Part shown: positions 1,980-58,865 of the stretch, piece after piece
How the letters are laid out: every line of letters starts with the position of its first letter
Position numbering within the stretch: the first letter of the stretch is position 1
Assembly: GCA_032718475.1 (NCBI GenBank)
Contig: JAUCBJ010002048.1
Span: 4,728-68,727 of the forward strand
Source of the DNA: Nemertoderma westbladi
Taxonomy: Eukaryota > Animalia > Xenacoelomorpha
DNA: 64,000 nt
Reading direction: 5' to 3'
Made by a program: the position numbers and the translations under genes
Notes under the pieces: model-generated
Database searches by the model: none
The model's input: only the letters and a program-made list of their open reading frames with translations
Told to the model about the DNA's origin: nothing

Positions 1980-3366
1980 GGATAGGCGAACATTTCTTGC
2001 AGTGAAAGTATTTCCATACCTGTTATAGTTTTTGAGATAGTCAGACATGAGTAGCTAAAATTTGATTTTTTTTTGGTGAAGTCTTATTTCACCGGTACCT
2101 ATCATCCGAAATATGGATTGTGATATATCGTTAGATGCGGGTCCACTATCTGTACATTCACATTTTTTCAAGAATAAAATTCGATCAAGAGTTTTCGAAA
2201 TATTTTCGAATTACCGGAAGCAGACTTTGGACGACTATATCTCCGGTACCGGTAGGCCTATTGAGTCGAAATTTTTTTTAATCTACTTGAACACTCCAGT
2301 GAATATTTTTTAGTTTGAAAGTTTTGCCCCAAAATGCTCAGAAGTAATTTGGAAAAAACTGATCATTTCGCGATCATGATCTTTTGACCCCCTAGAATTT
2401 AACTTTTTTATGGTCAAATTTTGGCTACCCCCCCTAATTCGAGGGTGTGGAATCTTTTTGTAATGTTAAGGTTTTTCATACGGTGAACTCACATGACTTA
2501 TGGTCTTCGAAATAAAACCGAAAACATGATCATTCCTGATCATGGCCTGATCAAATCACTTTTTGAAAATTTCGAAATGCTCAAAAGTTGCCCCTTCTTA
2601 ATAGAAGTCGATTAGTAAAAAAAAAATCGGGGGTCTCAAACAAAGTTTTCGAGAAAATCGGGAAAAACCAAAAAACATGATCTTTTATGATCAGGAAGCT
2701 GATCTCGAGAACCGGTTACCGATCGAGCCACTTTTTTTTAATCAACTCCGAATAGACCATTGAACATTTCTTACAATGAATGTTTATTAAAAAAATGCTT
2801 AGAGTCGATTTTAAATATACTGATCTTTTCGCGATCATGATCTTGAGTTTTGACCCACTGGACTTGAAACTTTTTTTATGCCCAAATTTTGGCTACCTCC
2901 CATAATTCGAGGGTGAGGAATCTTTTTGTGGTGTAAGTATAAGTTTTTCCATACAGTGAACTCCCAGGACTTGATCTTTGAAAAAAAACCGAAAACACGA
3001 TCTTTTCTGATCGCGGCCTGATCAAATCGCTTTTTGTAAATTTCGAAATGCTCAAAAGTGGCCCCTTCACCATAGAAGTCGATTCGTAAAAAAAAAATCG
3101 GGGGTCTCAAACAAAGTTTTCGAGAAAATTCTAAAAAACTGAAAAACACGATCTTTAATGATCAGGTATCAGATCTCGAGAACCGGTTGTTCGATTGAGC
3201 CAATTTTTATTTAATCGACTCAGGGCAGTGTTCTGAACGTTTCCTACAGTAATTGTTTATATCCAAAATGCTTAGTTACGATTTTACGAAGTCCGATCTT
3301 TGCGCGATCATGATCTTGCATTTTGATCAGGAAGAATTCACTTTTTTTAAATCTTTTAACGGGAAT
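1980..3366. mobile_element. Non-coding repeat (probable non-autonomous DNA transposon) with ~470-bp internal tandem units; left part, interrupted by the LTR element
   Basis: GATC.TT.CGCGATCATGATCTT recurs at ~2362, ~2822 and ~3296 with long colinear similarity. The same unit resumes after the LTR element at 21660 (GAATCTTTTTGTAATGTTAAG). Termini were not identified. Confidence 0.55.
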
Positions 3367-5521
3367 TGTTACGGTATATGGCGCTGTATCCACATATATT
3401 AGTCCGTTATACTGTACGCAATATTAGTCCGTTATACTGTATGTAATATTAGTCCGTTGTGCAGCATAATATTTTAGATAAGGCATAATAGCGCAGTGAT
3501 ATTTAGATAGGGAAACCAAAACGCCCATATATTTTGAATCCATCCATTTTGTATAATATGTAGCCCTACCTACGTAATTTTGTATTAGGATATATGTAGA
3601 TAGTTCCAGGGTAGCAAGTTTAGTCGGACCCTGGATTTCGTGCTTGCTGATATTAGCTTCAATAGGGCTAGCATATAGGGACGCTGTCCTGGCCATTCAG
3701 CAGCCAGGGACATGATCCATTACGATATATGGTAATAATTTGAGGTTTGGGCGGCAATAGGGCTACAATCCGGCCTCCTTATTGGACTAACTGCTTCCAG
3801 GTTGGTCTAATGCTAGCGCGGACTGGAGAGCCAATAGGAGAGCGATTGAGTCACCCTATTGCATCACCCCATCCGGATCACCTATAAATTGGCGGCTTGC
3901 CGGTAGAGCTGTACAACAACCCTATACCTTACAATCCACACCCTTATATTTTAGCGTATTTCTGCAATTTGCTAAATTTTGATTAATTTCTTAAGATGAT
4001 TTGCTAGTGCGATTATTCTTGATTGTGTTTCTCAATTAATCCCATCGATTACTGCTAATTACAACTGGAACTATGATTTCTACCTTTTGTTAATGGTTCT
4101 ATGTGATTCCTTTCTACGCAATAATCCTAAGGGATTTCTGAGACTGTCAGACTTTGTGATTTGCATGCGCCGCTACGGTAGCTATTAGCATAATGGAGGG
4201 CTAAGGTGCCAGTGGGCGGTGGGCACATCGGGGGGTTGAGCGACTAAGGGAGAGCGGAGGATTCAAAGGCGGGCAACGCTGGCGGGGGGTCACCGTTGCG
4301 GTCGGGCAGTTCACGCTGTGGTATGCAGACCATTCGCCGGTACGGTAATTAAGGGGCTGATGATCCAGGTTTCGTCTCTATTTAGTATTAGGGGGGCAGG
4401 AATCAGGTTAGTTAGGAGTCCTATATGTACCCGGGAGAGGCCTGCACGTATCACAACGTGGAGTGTGAAGTACGAATAGTGAGTCGCACAACTGTGGGCT
4501 ATACAGTAGTTAACTGCATAATTGCGAACTGTGATTGCTGACGCTGATTGGTGTGTTATTGAAGTGTGCCTACGATTGTGAATGTTTAGGTAGGTGCCCC
4601 CTTTCTTTGATTGATTTCTATTTCTTAGTTACAACAATTAGTTACTGATTAGGTCAAAGTAATACGGCAATTTAGGCTATTACTAGCGAAACCTGTTGCG
4701 TAATAAATTAGAATTACGCATTCTGGAACTCTTAGTAATTAGTACGCTGTTACATATTTGTGACTGTAATTGATTAGTAAAAAATTAAGAATTAGTATGC
4801 AGCATAGCGGAGAGTAGCTAAGGTAATAATTAGAGTACTGTAAACTATTCACGCTGAGCGGTTATTTGCATTGGCGGGCAATCAGCTAGATCGCACTATT
4901 CGGTACACACAACACGCTAGTAATTTGCTGGCCTAAAGCCAGCTGCAGGCAAGTTTAGACCCAGAGCGGAACTATCCACGTAGAGAAAAATACTGTACCA
5001 TTTTGATTATTTTAAATATTCTCGCATTCACACATTACGATAGGGAACCCCCAGTATTCGCGATTAGAAAAGGCGTAGGCAATAGCGTGCTTTAATAGTG
5101 ATAGAATTAGGCGTAAGAATACTCTGAGTGCAAAGCCTCTCGCACTCGTCTTAAGTAAGCTTAGGGAGCTGACTCGGGTTTATTGTTTTGGTTATTCCCG
5201 CGTGGCTCATAGATTCGAACAGTTAGCTCTCTATCGAGCAATCGGTAGAGAAAGGAACAAGCAATTTTGCAGGAGCTGTGTAAATTTAGTAAATTATATT
5301 AGCGGACGGCAGATAAGCGCCATCTAACGGTAAGTAGCGGTTTGTATTTAGCAACCCTTACAATTTAGCAATATCACGCTCCTGATCCCCTTTACTTAAC
5401 AGTAGAGCAGTCTTTGTGTCTTATTGGTTAGGCGAGAACTTATTAGGTTGGCAGAGGAGTATACGGGTATTTGTCTGTTCAACAGTTCTGCTGTTAGTAT
5501 AGAGGTCGCGGTTGTTTATCA
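3367..5521 (+). repeat. 5' LTR (2155 bp)
   Basis: Starts TG, ends CA; direct repeat of 19549-21654. Contains CCAAT/ATTGG boxes, TGAGTCA, TATAAA (3883-3888) and AATAAA (4702-4707). Confidence 0.95.
3780..3915 (+). promoter_or_regulatory. Candidate LTR U3 promoter (CCAAT boxes, AP-1-like site, TATA)
   Basis: ATTGG ~3781, CCAAT ~3831, TGAGTCA ~3847, TATAAA 3883-3888. Motif-based only. Confidence 0.45.
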
Positions 5522-5533
5522 GTGATACGTGCA
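5522..5533 (+). promoter_or_regulatory. Atypical primer-binding site, complementary to the element's own LTR (4443-4454)
   Basis: GTGATACGTGCA directly abuts the LTR-terminal CA and lacks the TGG of a tRNA PBS. Its exact reverse complement TGCACGTATCAC lies at 4443-4454 and 20612-20623. Confidence 0.6.
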
Positions 5534-6711: not shown

Positions 6712-9700
6712 ATGAGTGTCTCAGACAAGGAGGCACTAGAGGACAGCTATGAGATGGCGGCTGGACCGCCGACTGACGATAGCGTCAATATTACTGTTGA
6801 CGACAATGCCGACTATGACGACGCAGCGAGCGACGCTGACGTAAGTGAACAGGAGGACGAGACAGTGACTAGTGAGGAAGAACAACAACCTCAAGTAATA
6901 GTATTAGGATCCCCTACCGCTACTGTAAGGAAGGACTGTACAGCAGCCCGGACAGAGGTGAGTGATAGGGAGGGTAGTGTAGCAGAAGCGAGAGCCCGGA
7001 GCCCGGTTTCCAGACCTGTGGGTATGGTAAGTGCCGTGGTCCCGACGGCTGTAAGGAGTACCCGTAGTTCCCGAAATAATCCTTCAAGTCCACCGAGTGT
7101 AAGTCAGGTAAGTGATAGAGAGTTCGACACTGCGATAAAGAAGAAACTTCGCGCGCACGCCGGACATATAACTTGGACGGCGGACAAGGTAAGGAAGATG
7201 TTAGCTGACTCAGCGAACATCGGGAGGGTAGAGTTAGCAGAGATTAGAAGAGGATATAACTCAGCGTTATTCAAGCAGACGGAGGAGCTTGCAGTCCTAG
7301 CGAAGAAGGCAGTAGAGTCTCAGTCGAGCGACGTGGCGACGAGGATTTACGATAGGGTTTTGGCAGCCCTGTTGGAGCACCGCGAGTTATCGGAGCGATT
7401 CCGACGAGTTAGGACGGAGAACTGGCTGCTATGGGCATCCCAAGCGCAGGCGACTCAAGTGAGTGACGCAGAGTTAAGAGACTTAGTGGAGCGAGAAGAG
7501 ATCCAGGATAAAGAAGAGCGCCGTTATCAGAGGGAAGTTACTAGCTGGCTGATGCAGAATGGAGTGGTGGTACCGGGTCAGGTACTACCGACGACGGAGA
7601 ACATCCAACAGAGGACGTTGACTCCACCCGACGACGCATCCAGAGACAGTGGCGATTCCCAGGTTAGTCACGCGCGAGGTAAGGTTATATGTGCTAGATC
7701 CCTTGTTTCGCACAACTCGGCGGAGGAGAGAAGACGCCGACTGGACGAACAGCAGGCGGAAGTTTTGCGTGCATCGGAAGCGCGGAAGGAAGCCGAGCGG
7801 GAACGGGAGCGAACACGTAAGTTAGACGCGAAGTTGCGCGAATTGGAAGATAAAGGTAAGAGTGAGCGAGCGGAACGCGTGCAGAAGGAACGTGAACTTC
7901 AACTTGAACGCGAACGCAAGGAACGTGAACTCGAACTTGAACGCGAATGCAAGGAACGCGAACTCGAACTTGAACGCGAGCAGAAAGAACGCGAACTCCA
8001 GCTCGAACGCGAACGCAAGGAACGCGAACTCCAGCTCGAACGCGAACAGAAGAAATGCGAACTCGAACTTGAACGCGAACGCAAGGAACGCGAACTCGAG
8101 ATCGAGAAGGAGCGACGGGCGTTGTATGAAGAGAAGGCGCGTGTGGAAGAAGAGGGCGCAGCGAGACGAGCGAGGGAAGAAGAAGAACGTAAACTGGCGC
8201 AGTTGGAAAGTGCGAGATTAAGTTTAGAGAGCGAAGAACGGACTAGGAAGGCGAACGAAATCGCCGAGAAGGGGATGCGAATGATCGAAGAATGTGGGGC
8301 GAGTGTAGGGACAGAGTTGCGAGAACTGTTCGCACTGCAGAAGGCCGAACAGGAAGCGAGAACTCCGGCTATACGCGAGTCGACGACGACCAGAATTCCT
8401 ATACCCGGTCCAGCTATTACGAGTACACGGATCGCTAAACCGTTCTCTACATATCGCACGCCAGTTGGTATTAGTGCTTCACCTATCGCCCAGGATCCAC
8501 GTCATCGGAACACCGCACCACTATACACCGAACGAGAGAATGAAGAATTTAGAGAAGAAACTCCGACGGGACGAGTATTTGGCGAACCGAACCCGCGGGT
8601 TTGGAATACGCGGACGGAGCGCCGACCCAGTTCGACGGAGAACTTCCGGGTTAAACCGGAAGAGGGATCATATGAGAGACAGCGGATTACTCAGATAGAG
8701 CCGACTATACAACAGAACCCTAGCCAGGAATTTATTACGAGGGATGAGTTAAGTGCTAGTTTAGCGCAAGCTATATCGCCGCACATCCAACCTATAACGG
8801 ACATGCTTAGCAACCTACGGTTAAAGGAAGCAGCCCAGGTAAGAAGTAATTCTAATCCTAGCAGGCCTGAGTTAGACAAAGTCCAGCCTAGTCAACGAGT
8901 ACGCATATCGGAGGAGACTATACCACATAGACCTCAGGTAAGGACGCCTGTCCCGAATATTCATAATCCCAATTTCGAAAATTCGGCCGAGAAATTTATA
9001 CAAGATGCTTGGGTCAGGGCCTCGGCGCGCAAACCATCGCGAGCGCTAAGGACTGACACAGAGTCAAGCGATGAAGAGGAAGAAATGAGACGTCAGAAGT
9101 CCCGAAACTATAAGGAAAGAAGGACCGACGCGGAGCAGGTAAGTTGGAACCACCGGGAAAGGACCAGACTTAACAACCCTGCGGAACTAAACCATTTGTT
9201 AACCCGCAACGACGCAACCCTTAGGGACATAGGTAAGTTTGCTGCTAGGCAAGGACTGCCGACGCAACAACCCCAGAAGTTTATGGGTAACCATAAGCAT
9301 TGGAGGACCTTCAAAACCTATGTCGACGAGCAGCTAACCAACAGCACCTTTACTCCCAACGAGAAGTTCAACTATTTGCTTCAGATGCTCCATCGAGAAC
9401 CTAGAGCCATTGCTGATAACTTCGTCGGCAATGAAAGAGCATTCGAGTTAGCGATGAAGACGCTTAGTGACATCTACGGGAATAAAACCAAGATGGCGCA
9501 GTCGATAGTAGAAGACTTGGGTAAGGGCGGAAGGATTACAACTCCGTTAGAGCTGTTGAACTTAGCGAACGCTATTTCGAACGCATTGGACATCTTGAGG
9601 ACGGTGAATCTACCTCATCATGGTGATCACGCCGAAGTTTTAAAGAGCGTAATAAGACGTCTAAACATGCGTTATCGACAGAAATGGCGCAAATTAGAAA

Positions 9701-10374
9701 ATAAGTTGGAGGGTCAAGGTAAGGTGTTGACACTTCAGCATATTCATGACATGATAGCCACAGACGCAGTAGCAGAGATGAAATCAAACTTCTCAGAGGA
9801 GAATATGAGGGAGTCTAAGCCTGTTACCGGTAAGTCTATGGTAAGTTTTGACGATGACAGGACCACTGTGACATTTAACTCAGTAGACAGATATAATTCG
9901 AGTACCCTAGCCTTTAGATCAGACTCGCGAGTATGGTCAGGTGAGCGGTTAGATAGACCTAGGTTAAAGCAACAGGAGTTGCCGGATGGATTTGTAGGTT
10001 GCCAATACTGTTTACTAAAGGAGGTAAGATCTGACGATCATAAGTTAGATAGTTGCAGACGGTTCAAAGAATTAAATTCGGAACAGAGAAGAGTTCAAGT
10101 GCGGACGTTGGACACCTGTTGGGCATGTCTTGCGCCAGGCCATGTACGGCGGCAGTGCCCGAACAGCAAGGACGGATGCATGGAATGCGGCAGACTACAT
10201 CACAAGTTGCTACATGCGGATTTCCACACCCCAATGGACCGTTACTTACAGCGAAATCCTCACAGGAAGGGGAGCAAAGAACCCATATCGATAAGGAGGA
10301 ATACGTATACCGGCATTCAGGATGATGGTTACCAACCAGGTTCATCGGATGAGGATGGCGAGTCGAGCGCGTGA
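6712..10374 (+). CDS. BEL/Pao Gag (coiled-coil region, DUF1759-like capsid region, Cys/His motifs)
   Basis: 1220-aa ORF. PQKFMGNHKHWRTF...EKFNYLLQML (DUF1759-like). C-terminal CQYC...H.LDSC, CWACLAPGHVRRQC and CMECGRLHHKLLH are typical of BEL/Pao Gag. Confidence 0.9.
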   Translation: MSVSDKEALEDSYEMAAGPPTDDSVNITVDDNADYDDAASDADVSEQEDETVTSEEEQQPQVIVLGSPTATVRKDCTAARTEVSDREGSVAEARARSPVSRPVGMVSAVVPTAVRSTRSSRNNPSSPPSVSQVSDREFDTAIKKKLRAHAGHITWTADKVRKMLADSANIGRVELAEIRRGYNSALFKQTEELAVLAKKAVESQSSDVATRIYDRVLAALLEHRELSERFRRVRTENWLLWASQAQATQVSDAELRDLVEREEIQDKEERRYQREVTSWLMQNGVVVPGQVLPTTENIQQRTLTPPDDASRDSGDSQVSHARGKVICARSLVSHNSAEERRRRLDEQQAEVLRASEARKEAERERERTRKLDAKLRELEDKGKSERAERVQKERELQLERERKERELELERECKERELELEREQKERELQLERERKERELQLEREQKKCELELERERKERELEIEKERRALYEEKARVEEEGAARRAREEEERKLAQLESARLSLESEERTRKANEIAEKGMRMIEECGASVGTELRELFALQKAEQEARTPAIRESTTTRIPIPGPAITSTRIAKPFSTYRTPVGISASPIAQDPRHRNTAPLYTERENEEFREETPTGRVFGEPNPRVWNTRTERRPSSTENFRVKPEEGSYERQRITQIEPTIQQNPSQEFITRDELSASLAQAISPHIQPITDMLSNLRLKEAAQVRSNSNPSRPELDKVQPSQRVRISEETIPHRPQVRTPVPNIHNPNFENSAEKFIQDAWVRASARKPSRALRTDTESSDEEEEMRRQKSRNYKERRTDAEQVSWNHRERTRLNNPAELNHLLTRNDATLRDIGKFAARQGLPTQQPQKFMGNHKHWRTFKTYVDEQLTNSTFTPNEKFNYLLQMLHREPRAIADNFVGNERAFELAMKTLSDIYGNKTKMAQSIVEDLGKGGRITTPLELLNLANAISNALDILRTVNLPHHGDHAEVLKSVIRRLNMRYRQKWRKLENKLEGQGKVLTLQHIHDMIATDAVAEMKSNFSEENMRESKPVTGKSMVSFDDDRTTVTFNSVDRYNSSTLAFRSDSRVWSGERLDRPRLKQQELPDGFVGCQYCLLKEVRSDDHKLDSCRRFKELNSEQRRVQVRTLDTCWACLAPGHVRRQCPNSKDGCMECGRLHHKLLHADFHTPMDRYLQRNPHRKGSKEPISIRRNTYTGIQDDGYQPGSSDEDGESSA
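7885..8105 (+). repeat. In-frame 33-bp minisatellite in gag (ERELELERERK x ~6.5)
   Basis: AAGGAACGCGAACTCGAACTTGAACGCGAACGC units are visible and translate to an 11-aa E/R/K/L repeat. Confidence 0.85.
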
Positions 10375-10410
10375 GAAGTGACCTGCCAAGGTTTCACCGC
10401 GGATAGTTAA

Positions 10411-12966
10411 CCGACCAGCGCGCGGACGTATTTATCATCGGCCACGTCGGAAATATTTAGCGTGATTCCGGTGAAACTCACTGGCGATAAGGGATCGAAG
10501 AGAATATATGTGATGTTGGACACTGCGTCCACATTATCCTATATCGACGAGGAAGTGGCGAGAGCCGTTTCTAGCTTCCAGGACGCCGAGGAGATCCAAA
10601 TAGAGTTGAAGTCTATGCACGGGGTAGGAGACCTCAAGGGACACAGAATTTCGGTAGAACTAGATTCCCTACTTCCGAGAGACCAACATACTCGACAAGA
10701 ACGGAAAGCTTTGCCATTGGACGGATTTAAGTGTCTAGCTATGAAGGGATTCGGCAGGCAGTTAGGTAAGGTGCCGCCGATGAGTCCCATAGCACAGGAG
10801 TATTTTGACAAGCTCAGGATACCCAGACACCAGGTAGGTTATAGGAATGTTTCTATGTTGATTGGTGCAGAGCAGCTGATCGCACACCAGATATGGGAAA
10901 CGAGACCAGCTGAGCCGCATGTCAATGGACCACATGCCCATAGGACTATATTAGGTTGGTATACACGAGTACCCATGTCTTATGAGTTTACAGGTGGCGA
11001 CAAGCCAATGAACAGATACGATGAATTACGGCCTATAACTCAACCACCGTTAGTAGAACCACCAGACATAGACGAGTTTAGGAGAACCTGTATTGACCAC
11101 TATAGTGACTTTAGCGAGTCGGACGAGGAGTTGATTCCCGATAATGTTAGGTTGTCGGAACCACTTCATAACGACCGGACAGATAGTGAACCCGAGGACT
11201 ACTGTTATCAGACCCGTGGGTCTGGTTCAGCGGCCCACGCTACCTATTTGACTAACGTTTTGACTTATACTGACATAGTGGAGGGTCAGGTGGCTAAATA
11301 TCGAGACCTAGACATTTTCCAATACAGTGAGGAGGAGCTACAGAAGGAATTGATACGCCAGGACCTCGAGACAGGAGCCAGAACCGTCGAATGGCTGGAT
11401 AGGGACGCAATGGAACCCGGTGGATATGACCTAGCCATGTCTACTAATGAGAAACGGTCGCTGGAGATGATGGAAGACACCATACGTCTACTACCGACTG
11501 GACATTTTGAAGTTGGAATGTTGTGGCGTCGACAACCACCTAAGTTGGAGAACAACTATAACTTAGCCTTGAAAAGATTAAACGGAGTAAGGGCTCGGTT
11601 GTTAAGGAATCCGAACATTAGGGAGAAGTATTGCGCCCAGATCAACAACTATTTCGCTAAGGGATTTGCTGGGAAGGTAGAGGTCCCTGACTTAGTGACA
11701 GACCAGACTTATTACCTTCCACACCAATATGTGACTCACCCTGACAAGCCAGACAAAGTCCGAGTAGTCAACGACTGCGCAGCAGTCTATAGAGGTATGT
11801 CCCTGAATTCAGAGTTGATGGACGGACCCAACCTGAATAATTATTTGATTGGAATACTGTTGCGTTTTAGACAGCGGCGATTCGCATTTACTTGTGACAT
11901 CGAGGCGATGTTCCACCAGGTAAGAGCCTGTAAGGCAGACCAGGATAGCCTTCGCTTTCTCTGGTACGAGAATGAAGACCTATCCGGCCCAGTGGTTAAA
12001 TACCAGATGTACGTTAGGATATTTGGCGCCCGCGATAGTCCAAACGGCACGCTGTTTGTTCTAAAGAAAACGGCAACAGCCCAGATTGGTAAGTATCCAG
12101 TAGAGGTAATCGAGTCCATCTTGAGAAACTTCTATATGGACGACGGATTGGTGTCCAAGGACACAGAGGAACAAGCCATAGAAGTGGCTCACGGCCTGCA
12201 AGAGTGCTTGGCTACAGGGGGTTTTCCTCTGACCAAGTTCACTACAAACTCGGAGGCCCTATTAGAGTCGTTCCCGGTAAAAGATCGCGGGAGCGGAGAC
12301 ATTGAATTGGGGGTAGAACCAATCCCCATGGCGCGAGTACTGGGACTCGCTTGGAATCCGAACTCAGATAAGTTCCAGGTAAGAGTTAGATTTGAGCCCA
12401 GTAGCCCAGACAAAGTTTTGACAAAGAGGATTTGCTTATCGACATTAAGTAGACTATTTGACCCGATGAACTTTATCAGTCCGGTTATATTACAGGCACG
12501 AGCGTGCATGAGGAAAATTTGGTTGTCCGACGTAGAGTGGGACGAACCAATATCTCCTATACATGCAAAGCAGTGGAGGGAGTGGGAAGCTGAGTTGCAT
12601 CTATTGAAAAATATAGACGTACCCCGTTCCTACTTTCCGAATCAGCTGGTATTCCCAGCTGATCTCGAACTCCATCTGTTTAGTGACGCAAGTGACACCG
12701 GCTTTGGTATGGTAGCCTACCTTCGCCGAGAGGTAAGTCAGGACAAGTTTGAGACGGCTTTTGTGACTTCTAGATCAAAGACAATGCCGGTCAAATACAT
12801 GACTGTCCCTCGTGCAGAGTTACAGGCAGCTGTAGTTTCAGTCGAGGTAAGTAAGCAAATAACAGAGGAGTTAGACACGACATTGACCTTATTCTATTGG
12901 ACGGACGCATCCTTGGTGTTAGTATACATTGCGGCCGACAATATCCAATATCGAAACTTCCATTAG
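10411..12966 (+). CDS. Pol part 1: aspartic protease, reverse transcriptase, N-half of RNase H
   Basis: MLDTAS protease motif. RT motifs YYLPHQ.V, KVRVVNDCAA, DIEAMFHQV, FGARDSP and FYMDDG. RNase H motifs LHLFSDAS, TVPRAELQAA and FYWTDA. Open from 10411 in the gag frame; no ATG start. Confidence 0.9.
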   Translation, partial: PTSARTYLSSATSEIFSVIPVKLTGDKGSKRIYVMLDTASTLSYIDEEVARAVSSFQDAEEIQIELKSMHGVGDLKGHRISVELDSLLPRDQHTRQERKALPLDGFKCLAMKGFGRQLGKVPPMSPIAQEYFDKLRIPRHQVGYRNVSMLIGAEQLIAHQIWETRPAEPHVNGPHAHRTILGWYTRVPMSYEFTGGDKPMNRYDELRPITQPPLVEPPDIDEFRRTCIDHYSDFSESDEELIPDNVRLSEPLHNDRTDSEPEDYCYQTRGSGSAAHATYLTNVLTYTDIVEGQVAKYRDLDIFQYSEEELQKELIRQDLETGARTVEWLDRDAMEPGGYDLAMSTNEKRSLEMMEDTIRLLPTGHFEVGMLWRRQPPKLENNYNLALKRLNGVRARLLRNPNIREKYCAQINNYFAKGFAGKVEVPDLVTDQTYYLPHQYVTHPDKPDKVRVVNDCAAVYRGMSLNSELMDGPNLNNYLIGILLRFRQRRFAFTCDIEAMFHQVRACKADQDSLRFLWYENEDLSGPVVKYQMYVRIFGARDSPNGTLFVLKKTATAQIGKYPVEVIESILRNFYMDDGLVSKDTEEQAIEVAHGLQECLATGGFPLTKFTTNSEALLESFPVKDRGSGDIELGVEPIPMARVLGLAWNPNSDKFQVRVRFEPSSPDKVLTKRICLSTLSRLFDPMNFISPVILQARACMRKIWLSDVEWDEPISPIHAKQWREWEAELHLLKNIDVPRSYFPNQLVFPADLELHLFSDASDTGFGMVAYLRREVSQDKFETAFVTSRSKTMPVKYMTVPRAELQAAVVSVEVSKQITEELDTTLTLFYWTDASLVLVYIAADNIQYRNFH

Positions 12967-14594
12967 TTAGCGGACAACCGTCGCTGGCATTAGAGTCATG
13001 CAGTATTTATGACAAATTACTAAATTCGTCTGCCTCTTGGCTGACAATTTGTAAAAGAACTGCGTGGTTAAGCCGATACGTTTCGTACCTTTGTATAAAA
13101 CATTTGAAACATTTGAGAGAACCATCGAGCGCTAATAGTGAGCGAATTCAGAAATTGAAACAACCTCTGACAGAGGATGAGATTGATCAAGCGGAATTAA
13201 AGCATTTGAAACATTATCAAATGTGTGCCTTCCCAAAAGAATTCCATCTATTATCGGCTCAACGACCAGTTCTCTATAAACCCCTTAGAAAATGGAGTCC
13301 ATTAATCCATAAGGGTTTAATTTGTCATAGATCGAGAATCCAGACTGTCGACATAAACTCACAGTTTCGGTTCCCAGTGATAATCCCTAGTCACCCAATA
13401 GAATTGCAAAGAGCGATTCTATGGGATATACACAAGAGGTTGCATCACGCGGGAAGGTTACACTGTTTGTCGGCAGCGAGACAGCGATTCATTCTATTGC
13501 AGCCAAGCAGGGCAGTAGGCACTATGTACGACGCCTGTCTGGTTTGCAAGAGAGTGAACGCCAGAGTATTGGAACAGGAGATGGCTGAACTCCCGGAAGC
13601 GAGAGTGCAGGCATATGACCCACCCTTTACGAACACAGGGGTGGATTGTTTTGGTCCGATTGAAGCAAAGAGTGGACGGCTGACCCACAAGCGATGGGGT
13701 CTGCTACTGACATGCATGGCTAGTAGAGCCATACACATTGAGCGTGTGGCAGACATGTCGACCAAATCTCTGCTCCTGGCCTTGAAGAGATTTATGGCCA
13801 GGAGAGGACTAGTAAAGGCGTTCTACTCCGATAAGGGTACAAACTTTGTCAGAGGGAATAGCGAGTTGAACGCGGCTCATAAAGCGGCACAGAATAAGGA
13901 AATTTCTGCAGCACTTTTGCCGCAAAGAGTAGAGTGGAGATTTAATACTCCAGAAAGTCCTTGGAGAGGAGGAAGTTGGGAGCGTTTAGTTCGCTCTGTA
14001 AAGCAGGCCATTGCCAAAACATTGCCTGTAAACAAACAACTTACCGACGACGAACTGGTCACAGCTTTCATTGAAATCGAGCATACCCTAAACTCGAGGC
14101 CGATAGCTATGTTGCCAGACGGTGTTGCATTAACGCCGAATCATTTGCTAATGCAGAGTCCAGCATTTCTTGTGCCGGCATCAGAACCCATTAGTGCCGA
14201 CCTATATAGTCGTAAAGGCTGGAAAGTAACACAATTTGTCGCGTACACATTCTGGGAATATTGGCGGGAATACTATCTTCCCACCATATCTACCAGAACA
14301 AAGTGGTACAAAACGGTTCGGAGTCTCCAAAGGGGAGATTACGTACTGATAACCGAGCCGATTGTCAAGAGAAAGTACTGGGAGACGGGAGTGATCTTGC
14401 ACACACACCCAGACGTGCAAAACATAGTGCGCACAGTCACTGTGAAAATTATGTGCAAGTGTCCGCACCCAAAAAAGTGTAAAACTAATGGTTTACACAC
14501 CTTGGACCGACCGGTCCAAGATATCGTGTTATTAGAGGAGACACGTATCGAGACGGGAGATTATAATTTGTCTCCTGCCTCAAAACAGAATTAG
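12960..14594 (+). CDS. Pol part 2: integrase (frame-shifted from part 1 by an internal deletion)
   Basis: H-x3-HHAG...CLVC zinc finger. PFTNTGVDCFGP, SDKGTNF and GGSWERLV form the DDE core. LTPNHLL and a C-terminal RPVQDIVLL follow. Confidence 0.9.
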   Translation, partial: PLVSGQPSLALESCSIYDKLLNSSASWLTICKRTAWLSRYVSYLCIKHLKHLREPSSANSERIQKLKQPLTEDEIDQAELKHLKHYQMCAFPKEFHLLSAQRPVLYKPLRKWSPLIHKGLICHRSRIQTVDINSQFRFPVIIPSHPIELQRAILWDIHKRLHHAGRLHCLSAARQRFILLQPSRAVGTMYDACLVCKRVNARVLEQEMAELPEARVQAYDPPFTNTGVDCFGPIEAKSGRLTHKRWGLLLTCMASRAIHIERVADMSTKSLLLALKRFMARRGLVKAFYSDKGTNFVRGNSELNAAHKAAQNKEISAALLPQRVEWRFNTPESPWRGGSWERLVRSVKQAIAKTLPVNKQLTDDELVTAFIEIEHTLNSRPIAMLPDGVALTPNHLLMQSPAFLVPASEPISADLYSRKGWKVTQFVAYTFWEYWREYYLPTISTRTKWYKTVRSLQRGDYVLITEPIVKRKYWETGVILHTHPDVQNIVRTVTVKIMCKCPHPKKCKTNGLHTLDRPVQDIVLLEETRIETGDYNLSPASKQN

Positions 14595-15365
14595 TGTTGG
14601 ACGCAACTCACTTCGTATGCATTCCTCGTATGCAAATACAAGGAAATGCATAGGAGCGGGGTTGTGGTGACTTGCGTTGAGTTTTGTCTGGTGGGTATCA
14701 AAACGAAATTTTATTTTCAAAAATTTTGGAAAATTTAAAATTTTAAAAATTAGAAGTGAACCCAAGACAATTCCAGACGCTGTGTATAGACGCGTTTTAG
14801 AATTCGTCTATAGATATACAGTAATTTGAAAAGTCGTGAAGCCTGGAAAATAGCATTTAGAAACCATGGTGACGGCTATATTACGTAGGAGTGTAAATTG
14901 AGTTTAGCAACTTCCACAGATTGGTGCCAACAGTGCAACTAAGGTGCTAAAGGTTAGTAGCACCAGGGGCGTACATGGACCCCACTCAGTAGTTTGCAGG
15001 ATGTGTGATGTTCGATTATCAAACCTGTGGGTTTGGTATAGTCGGGTATTGTGGCTATGGTCCTTTCTAACTACTGTAGTTTAGTACGAGTGATGGGAGT
15101 AGTTTGGGCATCAAAAAGTGAGTTGGTCACGGCCAGTTTATCTCCAAAGTTTTGCGCTATGCATGGGAATAGGTTAGAGGATAGTTAGTTAGGAAGAGAC
15201 GGGATCTAGAGAGTCGAACCTGAACTGCTGGAAGGCGGGGGGGGGGGGGGGGGGGGGGTTCGGGAGGTCTGTCTTTCGGCGACATCTAACTGATTTACCC
15301 ACAGTGTAATTGGTTACGTAACGGCACTTATTGGGATATATATATATGTATATACGCGAGGCATA

Positions 15366-18300
15366 ATGGAGAAGGATATTAGAGCGCAACCGCGCAGAGG
15401 ATTTACTGCCAGAGAGGAGGCGGAGCTACCATTCGCGCGACCAGGATGTAAAGACTCTAACGTTTACTACCATGGGCGGTCCGTGATGGAGCTAAACGGA
15501 AAATATAAACCGACTTATGATAAGGAATTACGGAGGGAAAGAATGAGAGCGTTGGGGGACCGGATGGAAGTTTTGCGGAGAGAGTATCGCACGCGGTATC
15601 CCTACGACTTCGCTTTGGACGTATGTGACATTAGTGCAGACCCGGATGAGGAGATCGCACGACTGTACCATATGAATATGTATTTACGACACGAAGAACC
15701 TCTACCTGCAATCCGAGATCAGTTCGACGGAATGCATCTATACCGGAGGACTCGAGGCGAGGATCAGGAGACGCCGAAAGTCTTCAGCGTGTACAAGCTG
15801 TTCTACAAGTGTGGTGAATGCATGAATAAGCAAGACGTGGCGATTCCCGATCGACTAGACGAGCAACATCCGGAACCGATATTAACGCGATGTCCAGCTC
15901 ACCAGTTCCTTAGATACAACGAGGGAGGTTACCCGATGAGCAACCCGATGATCAGTATCGACTTCAGCGGAAAGCGACCTCCGAGACCCATTACGCCGAC
16001 CGTTACGACATTAGATCCGTATACGGAGATTAAACCCTGTTCGACACCCAGTTTGATAGAGACGGCAGCGGCCATTTCGCTGTACCGAGCCTACAAGGAT
16101 CTAGAGGCGCGGCGCGAAGCGGCGCGGGACTCGGGTACCAAACCCGCGGGTTTGGAGCTCTCGAGTCCCTGGACTGCGTTTACTTCACCTCACCGAGCGA
16201 GAAGCCTCACGCCTGAGCATCAGGACGACATAGACGCGTTGCGGCAGGAGGAGCGAGCGGCGAAGGCGAAAGAGTTATTTGAGAATCGGATAGCGGAGTA
16301 TAATAAGACCGCGGATAGACATCAAGAGGAGACGAGGAGAGTGACCGGATTTGTTCCACAGGTCGTATCTCAACCCCGACCGGTGTATTATTCCGACGGC
16401 ACCGAACCTGCGATATTAGTAGATCATCCGGAGTCGCGAGAAGCGATACGATTCTTGCCGATGGTAAGAATGGCGGATCATTGGAACGTTGACTGTCTAC
16501 GGGAAGTTTTATGCGCGAAGTTCTTGCGTGATGTCCCAATGCAGATCACAGATTACGACACATTGGATAAGATTGGAGCTCCGGGGAAGGAGAGTAAATT
16601 ATTTGGATGGTTGGATAAGTACATCAAGGTATGGGTCGCGGTGGCTACATTCCCAGACGACGAGGAGGTAGACCAGACGTGGCTGAGGAGGAAGGGTTCT
16701 TATACCCGATATGATGACCACAAGGCTATCGAGCGCATGTGGACCCCATCAGACGAGATTCAGCGTCAGTGGAGGAAAACGGAGGAATCACTGCAGGATT
16801 GGAGGGTGATGTTCTACGACAATGAAGGAGGGTCCCATCAAGAATGTTTGACTAGCAAGTGTATTCAAATTCGTGCAGCCGATGGTGTGACTCATGTGTT
16901 TATGCGTGTGAGGGCGGATCGAGAGAGACCGGAGCCCATCATAACGACACAATATCGGAAGGGGAAGGATCCTAGGGAGCAGATTTTGGAGGTATGCAGG
17001 CGAGGAGGTATGCACGGAGCGGAGCGTATCGACGCCAGGATGCTACCCAAGAAAGTTAGAGAGGCTATTCTCAACCAAGATTACGTCAAGGTGGGATCGG
17101 GAGTCCAGAGCGATTTGGAGAGCGACTTCAACGCCATGACTGATCTGGAAGATAGATTGCCGAGACCGTTTGTCGACACCAAGCTATTGTTGCTATGGGC
17201 ACAGGATATTGGAATTTATAGGGAGTATCCCAACTCTGCCAAGACTGGTATGGGCTTTATAGCACACTTGTTGTATAATTGGGACTTTAAGTTAAAGACG
17301 CAGAAGAAGTACGAGGAGGCGTATGGCGAATACAACACGCCACCGGGAGCGGAGTTCAAATCCCACTTCAAGCGGCAAGCGTTAGTGTATTGGAACATTT
17401 GCGCGCCACCCCGTGCGTCGCTACAATATTATTTGGTGCTTGAGTCGAACACGGTGACTTGTTTATTAGCGGATATCGTTGCGCGAGTTTTGAAGCGTCA
17501 TCCATTGGTATTCGGAGGAGATCAATACGTTCGCTCGAAAGGGGGAATCCAATCCGACGTGATGAAGCGTTTCTTAACCCCGTTCTTCAACCAATCGTTA
17601 GAGAATACGTCGATGGTTAGGAGAGGATTAGCGATATTCCAAGGAGTATATCGACAGAACATCGGAGATTTGGGAGACCGACCGTCGATGGAGTATCCGA
17701 CGCCAGAAGCTTTGGAGAAGTGGTTCGGGAATCAAACCCGCGGGTTTCGTACTCCCTTCCACTCGGAGGCTGATAGACCTGTTAAGGAGGGCTGGCCGGA
17801 GACGTTAGTAGAGGTGTTCGGAGTAGATCTTCCGGTGGAGAAGACATATCCGAAACGAACGCGGGAGGAAATATTGGAGATAGAGGACAAGGGCGAGGAT
17901 GTTTACTTTGTTCCGGATCGACAACCGTTGACCGGAGAGGACGACATCGTATTAGACATTGGGAAGGAAGGAAGTGCGAAACCGATTGGAGACCTCATAT
18001 ACGAGAGGGCCTGGTTTCCACAAGCGCGTAGGTGCAAATTGTGCGGCAGCACAAGGCACAATCTAAAGTCGTGCGACGCGGTAGTAGAGGCGGCGCATAA
18101 GGTCTGTCGTTGGTGTAATGAGACCGACCATTCGTTTCACACGTGCACCGTCTTCATTTCTCAATGTGGATATTGTGGGGTAAAGGGACATCGTAGCGCG
18201 AGATGTCAGCTGCGAGATGATTCCTTTCAAAACCATAGCGCTAACCTACTTCGGGAGATGTTAGATAAGTGGGAGAGTGTGGCTGATTACCATATTCAAG

Positions 18301-19073
18301 CGCAGATGCGTTGGTTACCATTTAAGGCGGGATATGGATTTTGGGCGGTAGACCCATCGCATGTTGCGTACGAGCCATATCTACAATCGCTACCACAATA
18401 TCAGGAACTCATCCTAACTGCTCAAGACCTTCCACAGAACACTGGAGTTATCGTAGTCCGAGAATACTTCAGACAATTGAATATGGATAACAAGTACACC
18501 TGGAACTTCGTTGCTATTTGCGATCGCATCACGAAGGGTGTATTTACGGAGACTAGAAAAGTGGTACGCGCGCGAGGTGAATGGAGGATGGCGGCTATAC
18601 AATACCGCAACGAATTCTTGTTGACTCATGTGCCAGTGGGTTCATTGACCGCTGAGAGGATACAGGGACAGAGGATCGCAGCGACCACAGCGACGACCGC
18701 TGGAGCTCAAGGCTCGCGGAAAGAACCAGGAGGAGGGGTCCACGACAAGCGTCAAGTCAAGGACGACCACTATCACTCTATTATAGAAGCACAGAGGTTG
18801 CAGCGCAAGGCGCAGGGAGCGTCGGAAAAAGCGCGTGTGCAACTGCATAAGGAAGAGTTGGCGGAAGCGACCACGGGAGCACGACAATTGGGACGAGGCC
18901 GAGGAAGAAGCACGAGCCGGGAATCTGTCGGGGCTCAGGGAACATCGTCGCCGGTTCCGGGGAGTGATGCCTCACGGATGCCGTCAACGGAGTCGACTGG
19001 AGGACGACTGGTGTATCTGGGGAGGGGGCGAAAGAGAGGAGCGAGCCCAAAGAACCCAGGAGCGGGTCGATAA
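15366..19073 (+). CDS. ORF3: DEDDy (WRN/RNase D/EXD-like) 3'-5' exonuclease domain plus three CCHC zinc knuckles
   Basis: 1235-aa intact ORF. ExoI VMFYDNEG followed by CIQIRAADGVTHVF. ExoII LPKKVREAILNQDYVKVGSGVQSD and FVDTK. ExoIII YWN..PP..SLQYYLVLE. Knuckles CKLCGSTRHNLKSC, CRWCNETDHSFHTC and CGYCGVKGHRSARC (18033-18206). Domain call is by motif recognition. Confidence 0.75.
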   Translation: MEKDIRAQPRRGFTAREEAELPFARPGCKDSNVYYHGRSVMELNGKYKPTYDKELRRERMRALGDRMEVLRREYRTRYPYDFALDVCDISADPDEEIARLYHMNMYLRHEEPLPAIRDQFDGMHLYRRTRGEDQETPKVFSVYKLFYKCGECMNKQDVAIPDRLDEQHPEPILTRCPAHQFLRYNEGGYPMSNPMISIDFSGKRPPRPITPTVTTLDPYTEIKPCSTPSLIETAAAISLYRAYKDLEARREAARDSGTKPAGLELSSPWTAFTSPHRARSLTPEHQDDIDALRQEERAAKAKELFENRIAEYNKTADRHQEETRRVTGFVPQVVSQPRPVYYSDGTEPAILVDHPESREAIRFLPMVRMADHWNVDCLREVLCAKFLRDVPMQITDYDTLDKIGAPGKESKLFGWLDKYIKVWVAVATFPDDEEVDQTWLRRKGSYTRYDDHKAIERMWTPSDEIQRQWRKTEESLQDWRVMFYDNEGGSHQECLTSKCIQIRAADGVTHVFMRVRADRERPEPIITTQYRKGKDPREQILEVCRRGGMHGAERIDARMLPKKVREAILNQDYVKVGSGVQSDLESDFNAMTDLEDRLPRPFVDTKLLLLWAQDIGIYREYPNSAKTGMGFIAHLLYNWDFKLKTQKKYEEAYGEYNTPPGAEFKSHFKRQALVYWNICAPPRASLQYYLVLESNTVTCLLADIVARVLKRHPLVFGGDQYVRSKGGIQSDVMKRFLTPFFNQSLENTSMVRRGLAIFQGVYRQNIGDLGDRPSMEYPTPEALEKWFGNQTRGFRTPFHSEADRPVKEGWPETLVEVFGVDLPVEKTYPKRTREEILEIEDKGEDVYFVPDRQPLTGEDDIVLDIGKEGSAKPIGDLIYERAWFPQARRCKLCGSTRHNLKSCDAVVEAAHKVCRWCNETDHSFHTCTVFISQCGYCGVKGHRSARCQLRDDSFQNHSANLLREMLDKWESVADYHIQAQMRWLPFKAGYGFWAVDPSHVAYEPYLQSLPQYQELILTAQDLPQNTGVIVVREYFRQLNMDNKYTWNFVAICDRITKGVFTETRKVVRARGEWRMAAIQYRNEFLLTHVPVGSLTAERIQGQRIAATTATTAGAQGSRKEPGGGVHDKRQVKDDHYHSIIEAQRLQRKAQGASEKARVQLHKEELAEATTGARQLGRGRGRSTSRESVGAQGTSSPVPGSDASRMPSTESTGGRLVYLGRGRKRGASPKNPGAGR

Positions 19074-19548
19074 TACATCATAGCACAGGGCGACAGACTC
19101 TAGATATATACATCATCGTCGCTCTGATGTATATTGTAGCATTTAGAAATCTTCGACTAGACTCATATACACTAGTTGAGCTGTTTTGAATTTATATTAT
19201 GAGAGAGGCGAAGGAAGTGATTGGGGAGACAAACCTGCGGGTTTGGCTTACTCCTTTCACTTGCCCTAGCAAATTTTTTTATATATATTTGATTTTGTAT
19301 GTAGTAATCATTATGTAGTACGAACGAGAAACAATATTTGTAAATTTAATTTGAATGAGAGAGATAATATTTGTAAATTTAATTTGTATGCAATTCATTA
19401 TGCAATATCTATAGCAATATTTTGTAAATAGTAGGATTTATAGTATCAAGTATTTAGATTATTTGGAAGAAATTTATTTTGTTTGTATACATCACCTTAT
19501 ACTCTTCTACAGTTGGAGGGAAACATTATATGATTTCCCTTGGAGCGG

Positions 19549-21654
19549 TGTTACGGTATATGGCGCTGTATCCACATATATTAGTCCGTTATACTGTACG
19601 CAATATTAGTCCGTTATACTGTATGTAATATTAGTCCGTTGTGCAGCATAATATTTTAGATAAGGCATAATAGCGCAGTGATATTTAGATAGGGAAACCA
19701 AAACGCCCATATATTTTGAATCCATCCATTTTGTATAATATGTAGCCCTACCTACGTAATTTTGTATTAGGATATATGTAGATAGTTCCAGGGTAGCAAG
19801 TTTAGTCGGACCCTGGATTTCGTGCTTGCTGATATTAGCTTCAATAGGGCTAGCATATAGGGACGCTGTCCTGGCCATTCAGCAGCCAGGGACATGATCC
19901 ATTACCATATATGGTAATAATTTGAGGTTTGGGCGGCAATAGGGCTACAATCCGGCCCCCTTATTGGACTAACTGCTTCCAGGTTGGTCTAATGCTAGCG
20001 CGGACTGGAGAGCCAATAGGAGAGCGATTGAGTCACCCTATTGCATCACCCCATCCGGATCACCTATAAATTGGCGGCTTGCCGGTAGAGCTGTACAACA
20101 ACCCTATACCTTACAATCCACACCCTTATATTTTAGCGTATTTCTGCAATTTGCTAAATTTTGATTAATTTCTTAAGATGATTTGCTAGTGCGATTATTC
20201 TTGATTGTGTTTCTCAATTAATCCCATCGATTACTGCTAATTACAACTGGAACTATGATTTCTACCTTTTGTTAATGGTTCTATGTGATTCCTTTCTACG
20301 CAATAATCCTAAGGGATTTCTGAGACTGTCAGACTTTGTGATTTGCATGCGCCGCTACGGTAGCTATTAGCATAATGGAGGGCTAAGGTGCCAGTGGGCG
20401 GTGGTTGAGCGACTAAGGGAGAGCGGAGGATTCAAAGGCGGGCAACGCTGGCGGGGGGTCACCGTTGCGGTCGGGCAGTTCACGCTGTGGTATGCAGACC
20501 ATTCGCCGGTACGGTAATTAAGGGGCTGATGATCCAGGTTTCGTCTCTATTTAGTATTAGGGGGGCAGGAATCAGGTTAGTTAGGAGTCCTATATGTACC
20601 CGGGAGAGGCCTGCACGTATCACAACGTGGAGTGTGAAGTACGAATAGTGAGTCGCACAACTGTGGGCTATACAGTAGTTAACTGCATAATTGCGAACTG
20701 TGATTGCTGACGCTGATTGGTGTGTTATTGAAGTGTGCCTACGATTGTGAATGTTTAGGTAGGTGCCCCCTTTCTTTGATTGATTTCTATTTCTTAGTTA
20801 CAACAATTAGTTACTGATTAGGTCAAAGTAATACGGCAATTTAGGCTATTACTAGCGAAACCTGTTGCGTAATAAATTAGAATTACGCATTCTGGAACTC
20901 TTAGTAATTAGTACGCTGTTACATATTTGTGACTGTGATTGATTAGTAAAAAATTAAGAATTAGTACGCAGCATAGCGGAGAGTAGCTAAGGTAATAATT
21001 AGAGTACTGTAAACTATTCACGCTGAGCGGTTATTTGCATTGGCGGGCAATCAGCTAGATCGCACTATTCGGTACACACAACACGCTAGTAATTTGCTGG
21101 CCTAAAGCCAGCTGCAGGCAAGTTTAGACCCAGAGCGGAACTATCCACGTAGAGAAAAATACTGTACCATTTTGATTATTTTAAATATTCTCGCATTCAC
21201 ACATTACGATAGGGAACCCCCAGTATTCGCGATTAGAAAAGGCGTAGGCAATAGCGTGCTTTAATAGTGATAGAATTAGGCGTAAGAATACTCTGAGTGC
21301 AAAGCCTCTCGCACTCGTCTTAAGTAAGCTTAGGGAGCTGACTCGGGTTTATTGTTTTGGTTATTCCCGCGTGGCTCATAGATTCGAACAGTTAGCTCTC
21401 TATCGAGCAATCGGTAGAGAAAGGAACAAGCAATTTTGCAGGAGCTGTGTAAATTTAGTAAATTATATTAGCGGACGGCAGATAAGCGCCATCTAACGGT
21501 AAGTAGCGGTTTGTATTTAGCAACCCTTACAATTTAGCAATCGTCTTTGTGTCTTATTGGTTAGGCGAGAACTTATTAGGTTGGCAGAGGAGTATACGGG
21601 TATTTGTCTGTTCAACAGTTCTGCTGTTAGTATAGAGGTCGCGGTTGTTTATCA
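19549..21654 (+). repeat. 3' LTR (2106 bp)
   Basis: Copy of 3367-5521 with a 13-bp and a net 36-bp deletion plus ~4 substitutions seen by eye. Preceded by a short purine-rich TTGGAGCGG and a hairpin AGGGAAACAT...ATGATTTCCCT. Confidence 0.95.
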
Positions 21655-22060
21655 GGAATCATGGCTAATGTGGGGTCGCTGAATCTTTTTGTAATGTTAA
21701 GTTTTTCGATTGGGGCAAGCCTTGAGTGTCCGAATCCTGATCAAAACTGATCTTTGCTGATCATGGTCAAGATCATGATCTGATCGCTCCAAAAAAGTCT
21801 TTTTTAAGGTAAATCCATATGCTGCCTATCGATTGGCGCCGGTTCCAAGTCCGTAGCATTAGCGGTTCTAGAGATCGACGCATAGCAACGAGGTTGCTAG
21901 GGAAGCGGACTTTTTGACTCAAATTGGCCCTAGACGGAGAACCGTAGACATTTGAAACGTAATGTATATGGGAAAAAGTCTTCTGGATAAATTTTTTTTT
22001 TGGGGGGGGGGGGGGTCTAGGAACATCCTATTGTTGGTTTTCGCTTAGTTTCTGAGAAAA
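21655..22060. mobile_element. Continuation of the host repeat split by the LTR insertion
   Basis: GAATCTTTTTGTAATGTTAAG and GATCATGATC motifs match the 2200-3360 units. Confidence 0.5.
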
Positions 22061-25841: not shown

Positions 25842-26488
25842 TTAATGTGTTTCGCTACCGTACCACTGGAGGTAGGCCGCGACAACAGAAAACACAACTC
25901 CCAATAAACTAGCAATAAGGTATAAAATCATTAAAATGCGATCAAAAACAACCGACAAATTCTTCCACTCCTGGTGAATTTTCTCAGAGTGCTCAGAATG
26001 TTTTGTTCTCCTTGCGAATTTTCCCAGTAAATTTGAGATAATATTTGCACGTTTTCTCATGAAATCGCATAAACTTTTATCGTAAATGTTATTACATTTA
26101 TGAAAATCAGTTCTCGCCTTTATAATCGACTTTTGGTTTAAAGAATTATTCGTATTATTAATGGAATTTATACGCCGTTGCTTTTTCGTTTGGACGAGTG
26201 GTTCCATATCGGGATGCATCCCATTTGAATTCGTGCATCTCAAATCACCCAGTCCAATTGCAGTGGCGAGTTTATGCAACACGAGTTCTTTGATTGGGTA
26301 AGAAATCTCTCCCTTGTTGTACGCGTGATAGACATTGATGACTATAACAGTTTCAGCTAAGACAACGATGTTGACCGCCATACAGAATAGGAAGTAAACG
26401 CTAACGATAGGCAGGGTATCGGCAGATGTTGGCATAACCCTTGCCAATAACAACATGTATACCACCATCGCAAGCAACACTGATATAC
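25842..26488 (-). CDS. Nicotinic acetylcholine receptor-like (Cys-loop) subunit, exon 5 (M2-M4)
   Basis: Acceptor gtttag. Splices in phase to give GEKVNL-GISVLLAMVVYMLLLARVMPTSADTLPIVSVYF, then M3 and M4 EWKNLSVVFDRILMILY, ending in TAA. Confidence 0.9.
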
Positions 26489-26924
26489 CTAAACGATAAC
26501 CAAACGATTATCCAACAATAATGAGAAAAAGATTAGAAGACCGTCAAAAAAAATGCCTGAAAATGAAAACCCTAAACATAATTCCACGGTGACCCACACC
26601 TAGGCGTTGTGGTTTATAACCGTAACATTGAATTCACTTCTCTCTGGTGGTAGTGGGTTCGATCCCTGCGTGGGGGTCAGGGTAGATTTCGTTTCGTTAC
26701 GAATGCCATTAAATGGACTAGCCAGGGCGCATCTAGGCCTCGCGTCCTTAGATCATAGCTGAATGAGAACCAGTTTCCTCTAGGGATTATAGTTCTGGGT
26801 GGAACATACTGGAGATCAGTCATACGACTTTTTGCGTAATCCCTGGCCGAACAACCAAACATAACAACTCTAAACATATATATTACGTTTATATTATAAA
26901 TCATTAGACATTTACATAACATAC

Positions 26925-27180
26925 CTAGGTTAACTTTCTCTCCACTCTCAACAGGAAGCGCACATACTTTAACTAAGGTTAGACTTATAACCATAAATGG
27001 AAGGAGAATGTTGAACACCCAGTACAAGGATTGCCTCTGCAACCGAATCCGGACAACTAGACTGGAATAACCCTCCCAATCCTCCTCAATCATGGGTAAC
27101 CCAACTATTTGCCATTCCCCTTTGTTTTCGAATGTCAGTGCCAATCTTTCTGCGTCGCTTATGGCAGTTGATCTCAATAT
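26925..27180 (-). CDS. nAChR-like subunit, exon 4 (loops F/C, M1)
   Basis: ttttaag acceptor, gtatgt donor. Encodes FENKGEWQIVG...IRLQRQSLYWVFNILLP...LPVESGEKVNL. Confidence 0.9.
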
Positions 27181-27448
27181 CTTAAAAAAAAATAGAAAAA
27201 TAATACTATACGACGAATTGATCATATTAATTTAGTGTTTCTTATAGGCCTACTATTTATTTCCTCTACGTACTTAACCACAAAAATAACAATTATTAAT
27301 GGCCTTCAGTTAGTATTGGTAATATTTAAAATACAATATGTGGTGTGATTCTCGTAAGCAATATTATAGGGACCCGCAATACATTTTATTGTCCTCGGCC
27401 CTTGTTGTCGCAGATCAGTGATAGCACTATATATATATATATATATAT

Positions 27449-36115: not shown

Positions 36116-37579
<1,464 letters not shown>

Positions 37580-58749: not shown

Positions 58750-58865
58750 GTTAGTATTTTAGAGGTATACAACATTATTAATGAAATATATGAACGAACT
58801 TTAAGTACTTGTCAATTTTAGTCGATTAGAATGATACTGTATCAACAATTTATTTTGGTTTCCAG

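Follow-up and report, generated by a model that had tools for sequence, protein, structure and literature searches.

The closest described counterparts of the gene examined here are the third open reading frames (ORF3) of bdelloid rotifer elements, namely the Juno and Vesta long terminal repeat (LTR) elements and the Athena (Terminon) elements, where a separate RNase D-like ORF of the DEDDy type, with the motif DEED, occupies the env position (PMC5408684). In the 64,000 nt stretch of Nemertoderma westbladi DNA analyzed here (the window; positions 4,728 to 68,727 of contig JAUCBJ010002048.1), an 18.3 kb BEL/Pao LTR retrotransposon carries an ORF3 that very likely encodes a DEDD exonuclease fold, followed by three zinc knuckles. 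As in the bdelloid elements, this is a separate ORF with no transmembrane segment or coiled coil and with one D-to-E change, but the carrier is a BEL/Pao element and the motif is DEDE rather than DEED. The comparison with the bdelloid proteins is by description, and the available text of PMC5408684 gives a Cys-His-Cys motif for two families only and describes no triple CCHC array. Variation in the bdelloid ORF3s is presented there as mostly neutral (env and GDSL ORFs were those tested), whereas the ORF3 described here is under strong selection.

The domain order has a parallel in trypanosome RNase D (TbRND; PDB 7C42-7C4C), in which a 3'-5' exonuclease is followed by tandem CCHC knuckles; the enzyme binds and cuts small RNA, and the knuckles raise both activities, the cleavage strongly (PMC7797062, available text). 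TbRND is, however, a host mitochondrial enzyme of about 375 aa whose four knuckles lie 30 aa away from the nuclease, whereas in ORF3 three knuckles lie about 150 aa away, and there is a tail particular to the family as well as an extended N-terminus. TbRND turns up in both the profile and the fold searches described below, with a profile match that covers only the knuckles and a fold score (Z 6.2) below that of Nibbler, and the similarity of layout is probably convergent. Dada DNA transposons also bear a DEDDy domain, but within the DDE transposase and not as a free retroelement ORF (PMC3706591, available text), and in the accessible portions of three further papers (PMC5718144, PMC6431247, PMC6338049) the rotifer case is the only one of this kind mentioned. 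The open-access literature yielded no BEL/Pao element with an exonuclease ORF or with an exonuclease plus knuckles; Repbase, Dfam, subscription papers and supplements lie outside that scope and may hold one. The carrier superfamily, the domain layout and the unnamed family are new, while the DEDDy ORF3 and the exonuclease-knuckle combination are known elsewhere.

Layout and motifs of ORF3

The features of ORF3 in the window are as follows.

15366..19073, + strand: ORF3, 1235 aa, ATG at 15366, stop at 19073, zero internal stops
15366..16739, + strand: N-terminal region (aa 1-458), no Pfam or PDB match, absent from relatives
16740..17580, + strand: predicted DEDDy-type 3'-5' exonuclease domain, with D485 (16818), E487 (16824), D583 (17112), Y689 (17430) and E693 (17442)
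18033..18206, + strand: three CCHC zinc knuckles (C-x2-C-x4-H-x4-C)
18207..18500, + strand: helical tail conserved across the family, with [FW]E-x-x-A-D-x-[GH] ... G-[FL]-[FWY] and without a match in the libraries

ORF3 is intronless and not fused to gag or pol, and it forms a separate frame that starts 770 bp past pol (end 14594) and ends before the 3' LTR (start 19549). No transmembrane segment was found (highest 19-residue Kyte-Doolittle mean, 1.34), and thus no anchor of the env type. The N-terminus is charged and carries C149-x2-C152 and C176-x2-H179; the best PDB sequence match of aa 1-458 had an E value of 0.98. A five-codon upstream ORF (15346-15366) ends in a TAA that overlaps the ORF3 start codon (TAATG).

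The exonuclease motifs occur in the order FYDNE (aa 483-487; 16812-16826), IQI (500), LPKKV (560), YVKVGSGVQSD (573-583), FVD (602) and Y689-x3-E693. The D-x-E of Exo I and the D of Exo II are in place (D485, E487 and D583), and Exo III has E rather than D as its final acid. The knuckles lie at 18033-18074, 18105-18146 and 18165-18206; when the residues of ORF3 were shuffled, a single knuckle arose in 4 of 10,000 sequences and two or more in none of 10,000. Duplication of the knuckles of the element's own gag was rejected as their source, there being no blastp match at E<=1.

An earlier, sequence-only reading had described this locus as an uninterrupted 1235-aa frame between pol and the 3' LTR, with no membrane segment, an N-terminal C-x2-C...C-x2-H, three knuckles at 18033-18206 and a set of DEDDy motifs whose last D is replaced by E. 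These points hold, the knuckle positions exactly, and so do the order and positions of the motifs, except that the tryptophan before Exo III belongs to W-x4-P and not to W-x3-P. The bdelloid precedent that it mentioned is the one in PMC5408684.

Distant relatives and the predicted exonuclease fold

Pfam returned no hit in ORF3 at E<=1 and no exonuclease hit in its four parts or in any of the eight relatives, and the gathering cut-off of PF01612 was not reached. Because Pfam was blank, the motifs alone are not proof of an exonuclease, and support for the fold came only via the relatives. These were retrieved by a HMMER homologue search with aa 441-1045 of ORF3 as the query, which gave eight proteins (E 9e-12 to 6e-5) of 514-727 aa with 17-22% identity to the query over the alignment; word-seeded searches gave no match. 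Of the eight clusters, seven have a single member, and no cluster name is informative. They are long uninterrupted ORFs, as mobile elements would have, and start at the nuclease, the first 458 aa of ORF3 being extra. Every relative carries the three zinc fingers and also the helical tail, which reads [FW][EL]-x-x-A-x-x-[GH]. The Exo II pattern VGS-x4-D occurs in ORF3 and seven relatives, and the Exo I D-x-E in six, since P0006 begins after Exo I and P0002 reads D-x-K; exonuclease motifs, zinc fingers and tail occur together in seven of the eight. An alignment of seven domains was built from ORF3 and six relatives (18-24% identical), excluding P0002 as decayed and P0006 as truncated. In it, D485 and E487 are invariant, and the final acid is D in four domains and E in three (ORF3, P0003 and P0009). 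Since relatives also have E at this position, DEDE is a variant of the family and not damage to this copy of ORF3.

The change of the final D to E would also fit a nuclease of little or no activity that serves to bind RNA, in the manner of EXD1 or Egalitarian, as an adaptor that localizes element RNA or decoys partners in the Piwi-interacting RNA (piRNA) pathway. P0002, which keeps the zinc module twice but lacks the catalytic motifs, points the same way, as does the presence of Egalitarian and Exd1 among the fold matches. We consider this unlikely: among seven domains of such low identity three acids are fixed and the fourth is D or E throughout, which suggests that metal binding is still selected.

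Linkage to a BEL/Pao pol was established for none of the eight relatives. Metagenome scans for their loci gave three loci only, and viral and prokaryote scans none. Loci L002 and L003 were dropped, their match being limited to a gag-like knuckle, and two phage tblastn matches (E 0.6) were taken as chance. The single contig recovered (L001, 3.7 kb) has no pol; it carries P0002 at 79-2025, with a decayed nuclease and the doubled zinc module. An acidic ORF that begins 1.3 kb downstream (3384-3683) and runs off the contig resembles the acidic gag start of the BEL/Pao element.

The profile of the seven domains matched human EXD2 (E 2.1e-5), followed by Egalitarian (0.044) and WRN (0.24). In the EXD2 alignment Exo I and II are in register, with VGS-x4-D lining up with an EXD2 catalytic motif, and Exo III is aligned but without significance by itself. 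An AlphaFold2 model built from a 9-row alignment was then compared with 48,161 chains. All 50 matches listed cover model residues ~25-298 (ORF3 aa ~465-738), and we take all 50, by title, to be DEDD-domain proteins. The best among those listed was Aedes Nibbler (Z 8.8, root-mean-square deviation 4.4, 178 residues aligned), with three rows reaching Z 8. EXD2 came first in a Foldseek search of the PDB (E 4e-3). The ESM Atlas pointed to DNA_pol_A_exo1 (score 0.91, 160 shared features, the ten best family hits all from one clan), by calibration a weak lead. A fold from the single sequence was not used (mean predicted local distance difference test score, pLDDT, of 34), and a match of the domain alone to rotavirus VP4 in PDB sequences (E 0.008, 59 aa) was rejected as chance.

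On this profile and model evidence the ORF3 domain very likely has a DEDD exonuclease fold, the data choosing no subfamily. Exo I and II, and less surely Exo III, align with those of EXD2, WRN-exo, Nibbler (Mut-7) and Egalitarian (PF01612 clan), of which EXD2 is the best match by sequence and Nibbler by fold, but ORF3 is only 12-14% identical to these proteins, lies below Pfam detection, has several insertions and E at the last acid, and is transposon-encoded. The DEDDy-type assignment of the sequence-only reading is supported by profile and model; of the checks it had suggested, the structural one gave DEDD matches and the Pfam one no hit.

Copies, selection and the surrounding element

Six listed runs of four studies hold all or part of the stretch (X1, X3, X4 and X6 are runs), and one of them may be the source of the window. 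The 720-bp nuclease core aligns with 890 contigs of X1 and 394 of X3, of which 95 and 73, respectively, are under 90% identity; many divergent copies exist, and the family is multi-copy. Among 46 differences in the core, 40 are listed, and 34 of these are synonymous, against 21-31% expected. The resulting ratio of nonsynonymous to synonymous polymorphism (pN/pS) is about 0.05-0.08, a site count from short contigs and not a codon-model dN/dS. All 21 listed differences with a share of at least 8% in X1 or X3 are synonymous, and the other 19 (13 synonymous and 6 nonsynonymous) stem largely from a single divergent X6 contig with a 1-bp gap near its aligned end. None of the 40 falls at D485, E487 or D583, and the listed differences end before Y689 and E693. 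Across the whole element, none of the 12 listed indels (231 in total) lies in the 61% that is coding, a contrast inflated by homopolymers in the spacers. The nuclease domain of ORF3 is under strong purifying selection, as shown by variation among copies.

Such selection had been proposed in the sequence-only reading, and what would have spoken against it there, an ORF unique to one copy or evolving neutrally, is contradicted by these copies. The argument offered at the time, from an intact ORF3 beside a broken pol, carries little weight, because only five substitutions separate the LTRs and a neutral ORF3 at the LTR-derived rate would be stop-free 64-79% of the time (substitutions only). The proposed capture from a host gained no support: the nearest relatives belong to a family without a name that shares the domain layout of ORF3, and they include no named host gene. 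This last point also bears on whether ORF3 might be a host gene carried along as a passenger, or a separate insertion, that does nothing for the element, as the lack of a pol tie for any relative, and of pol on the 3.7 kb contig, would allow. We regard this as very improbable, since ORF3 is intronless, lies inside matched LTRs and occurs in many divergent copies whose differences are nearly all synonymous, and contigs of other copies run from spacer to ORF3 and from ORF3 to the 3' region.

Two further observations concern these runs. X1, X3 and X6 share a joint at 15511-15841, a net in-frame loss of 327 bp in the ORF3 N-terminus (aa ~49-159) that includes C149-x2-C152. No run is listed as RNA. 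Run X4, by guess an RNA run and labelled as another organism, contains at low depth long stretches that match the element along its length with 97-99% identity, for which mislabelling, contamination, a close relative or recent transfer are possible.

The element that houses ORF3 is a BEL/Pao LTR retrotransposon, as seen from its gag and pol domains, TG...CA LTRs and short target-site duplication.

3367-21654, + strand: complete LTR retrotransposon, 18.3 kb, BEL/Pao
3362..3366, no strand: 5' target-site duplication GGAAT
3367..5521, + strand: 5' LTR, TG...CA, 2155 bp
6712..10374, + strand: gag, 1220 aa, with DUF1759 (E 2e-9) and, towards the C-terminus, three Cys/His motifs of the BEL type
10411..12966, + strand: pol frame 1, protease-like motif, reverse transcriptase (weak, E 0.11), Pao Peptidase_A17 (E 2e-39), stops at a frame break
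12855..14594, + strand: pol frame 2, DUF5641 (E 3e-17) and integrase H2C2 slightly below the cut-off (E 2e-5)
15286..15304, + strand: possible branch point, CTAAC, with a possible splice acceptor 61 nt 5' of the ORF3 start, read from sequence
19549..21654, + strand: 3' LTR, TG...CA, 2106 bp, two short deletions relative to the 5' LTR
21655..21659, no strand: 3' target-site duplication GGAAT

The Pao-specific domains (Peptidase_A17, DUF1759 and DUF5641) are present by Pfam in the order gag-protease-reverse transcriptase-RNase H-integrase, and the 5 bp duplication GGAAT is identical on both flanks. The LTRs differ by five substitutions in about 2,107 bp and by two deletions totalling 49 bp; with so little difference, the insertion is young. 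The pol frame changes near 12950-12966, where contigs of other copies end or diverge. Gag and pol share one frame, split by two stop codons 36 nt apart (10372-10410), for which splicing, recoding or damage are possible. The leader (5522-5830) contains degenerate repeats spaced about 90-125 nt apart and has no TGG primer-binding site directly 3' of the 5' LTR, the first TGG lying 13 nt downstream. Rfam gave no matches across 3000-22000. The flanks (3000-3366 and 21655-22000) are themselves repeat, and in X3 and X6 there are contigs that connect the two with no element in between.

Beyond the element, the window contains three tandem arrays, of GGGAGC (x371; 22888-25111), a 16-mer (x360; 28269-34032) and CTA (x488; 36116-37579), and the following coding features, of which the mitochondrial carrier, THAP and N-myristoyltransferase sequences suit an animal host.

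25845-27231: exons that on inspection resemble a ligand-gated ion channel, without a Pfam hit
39797-40393: THAP domain (Pfam)
58309-58818: mitochondrial carrier exon (Pfam)
62151-63839: long uninterrupted N-myristoyltransferase ORF (Pfam)

Possible functions and significance

ORF3 is not fused to gag or pol, and replication of BEL/Pao elements does not normally require a gene of this kind; an accessory function suits this better than a core one. The reading we tentatively put forward, by analogy, is that ORF3 is a selectively maintained accessory gene whose predicted two-metal 3'-5' exonuclease may trim host small silencing RNAs and so blunt silencing of the element, a role of the RNA-processing or anti-silencing kind inferred in the sequence-only reading. 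Nibbler, the best fold match, is itself a small-RNA trimmer. Its product would be expressed from a separate spliced message via the acceptor-like sequence at 15286-15304, which is plausible because ORF3 is a separate frame well past pol and is preceded by a branch-point- and acceptor-like sequence, as for env-position ORFs. The three zinc knuckles would hold single-stranded RNA, the predicted nuclease would trim it from the 3' end, the substrate would most likely be host small silencing RNAs or their precursors, and this trimming would weaken silencing of the element. That the substrate is RNA seems likely from the parallel with trypanosome RNase D, and the Atlas places the relative P0003 nearest the trypanosome RNase D cluster (0.86), as a lead only.

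Several points weigh against small-RNA trimming. Mature piRNAs are 2'-O-methylated and Piwi-bound, and are poor exonuclease substrates. The last catalytic acid of ORF3 is E, P0005 carries C instead of the catalytic Y, and P0002 is without the catalytic motifs. The AlphaFold2 model is of moderate confidence (mean pLDDT 53), and Foldseek gave no match at E<=0.001 in the PDB and viral libraries, though exonucleases head the lists. The top structural rows are tied to within 1 Z and include WRN and the proofreading domains of DNA polymerases, which score within 1-1.5 Z of Nibbler, and with rows so nearly tied the fold favours neither RNA nor DNA. For the bdelloid DEDDy ORF3s, the available text of PMC5408684 reports no clear link to copy number.

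The same near-tie would suit a nuclease that serves the element's replication cycle, where it would trim the genomic RNA or the primer at the 3' end, or else remove mismatched or frayed cDNA 3' ends as a proofreading or end-polishing partner of the reverse transcriptase of an unusually long 18-kb element. The knuckles, being of the nucleocapsid type, could bind element RNA, the displaced TGG means that the primer may need processing, and 3'-end processing has been proposed for the bdelloid proteins (PMC5408684, available text). We hold this to be possible but somewhat unlikely, as no fusion to Gag or Pol would carry the ORF3 product into particles, and the diverse copies (95 of 890 contigs below 90% identity) do not suggest high fidelity, nor do they measure it. 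The preference for small-RNA trimming over this own-cycle role and over the RNA-binding adaptor is drawn from analogy. It is doubtful that ORF3 represents, as its first anchored member, a widespread and unnamed transposon-borne exonuclease-knuckle family of enzymatic suppressors of animal piRNA and small interfering RNA silencing in the BEL/Pao env slot.

The locus adds BEL/Pao to the bdelloid elements as a carrier of ORF3 nucleases in place of env, and brings to light a protein family that is invisible to Pfam. If editing of cDNA ends were its true role, the ORF3 product would be a rare proofreading-like partner of a reverse transcriptase. It has long been asked whether animal transposons encode counter-defences against piRNA silencing, and candidates are few; ORF3, strongly selected within a recently mobile, multi-copy family, offers a concrete candidate enzyme that can be purified.

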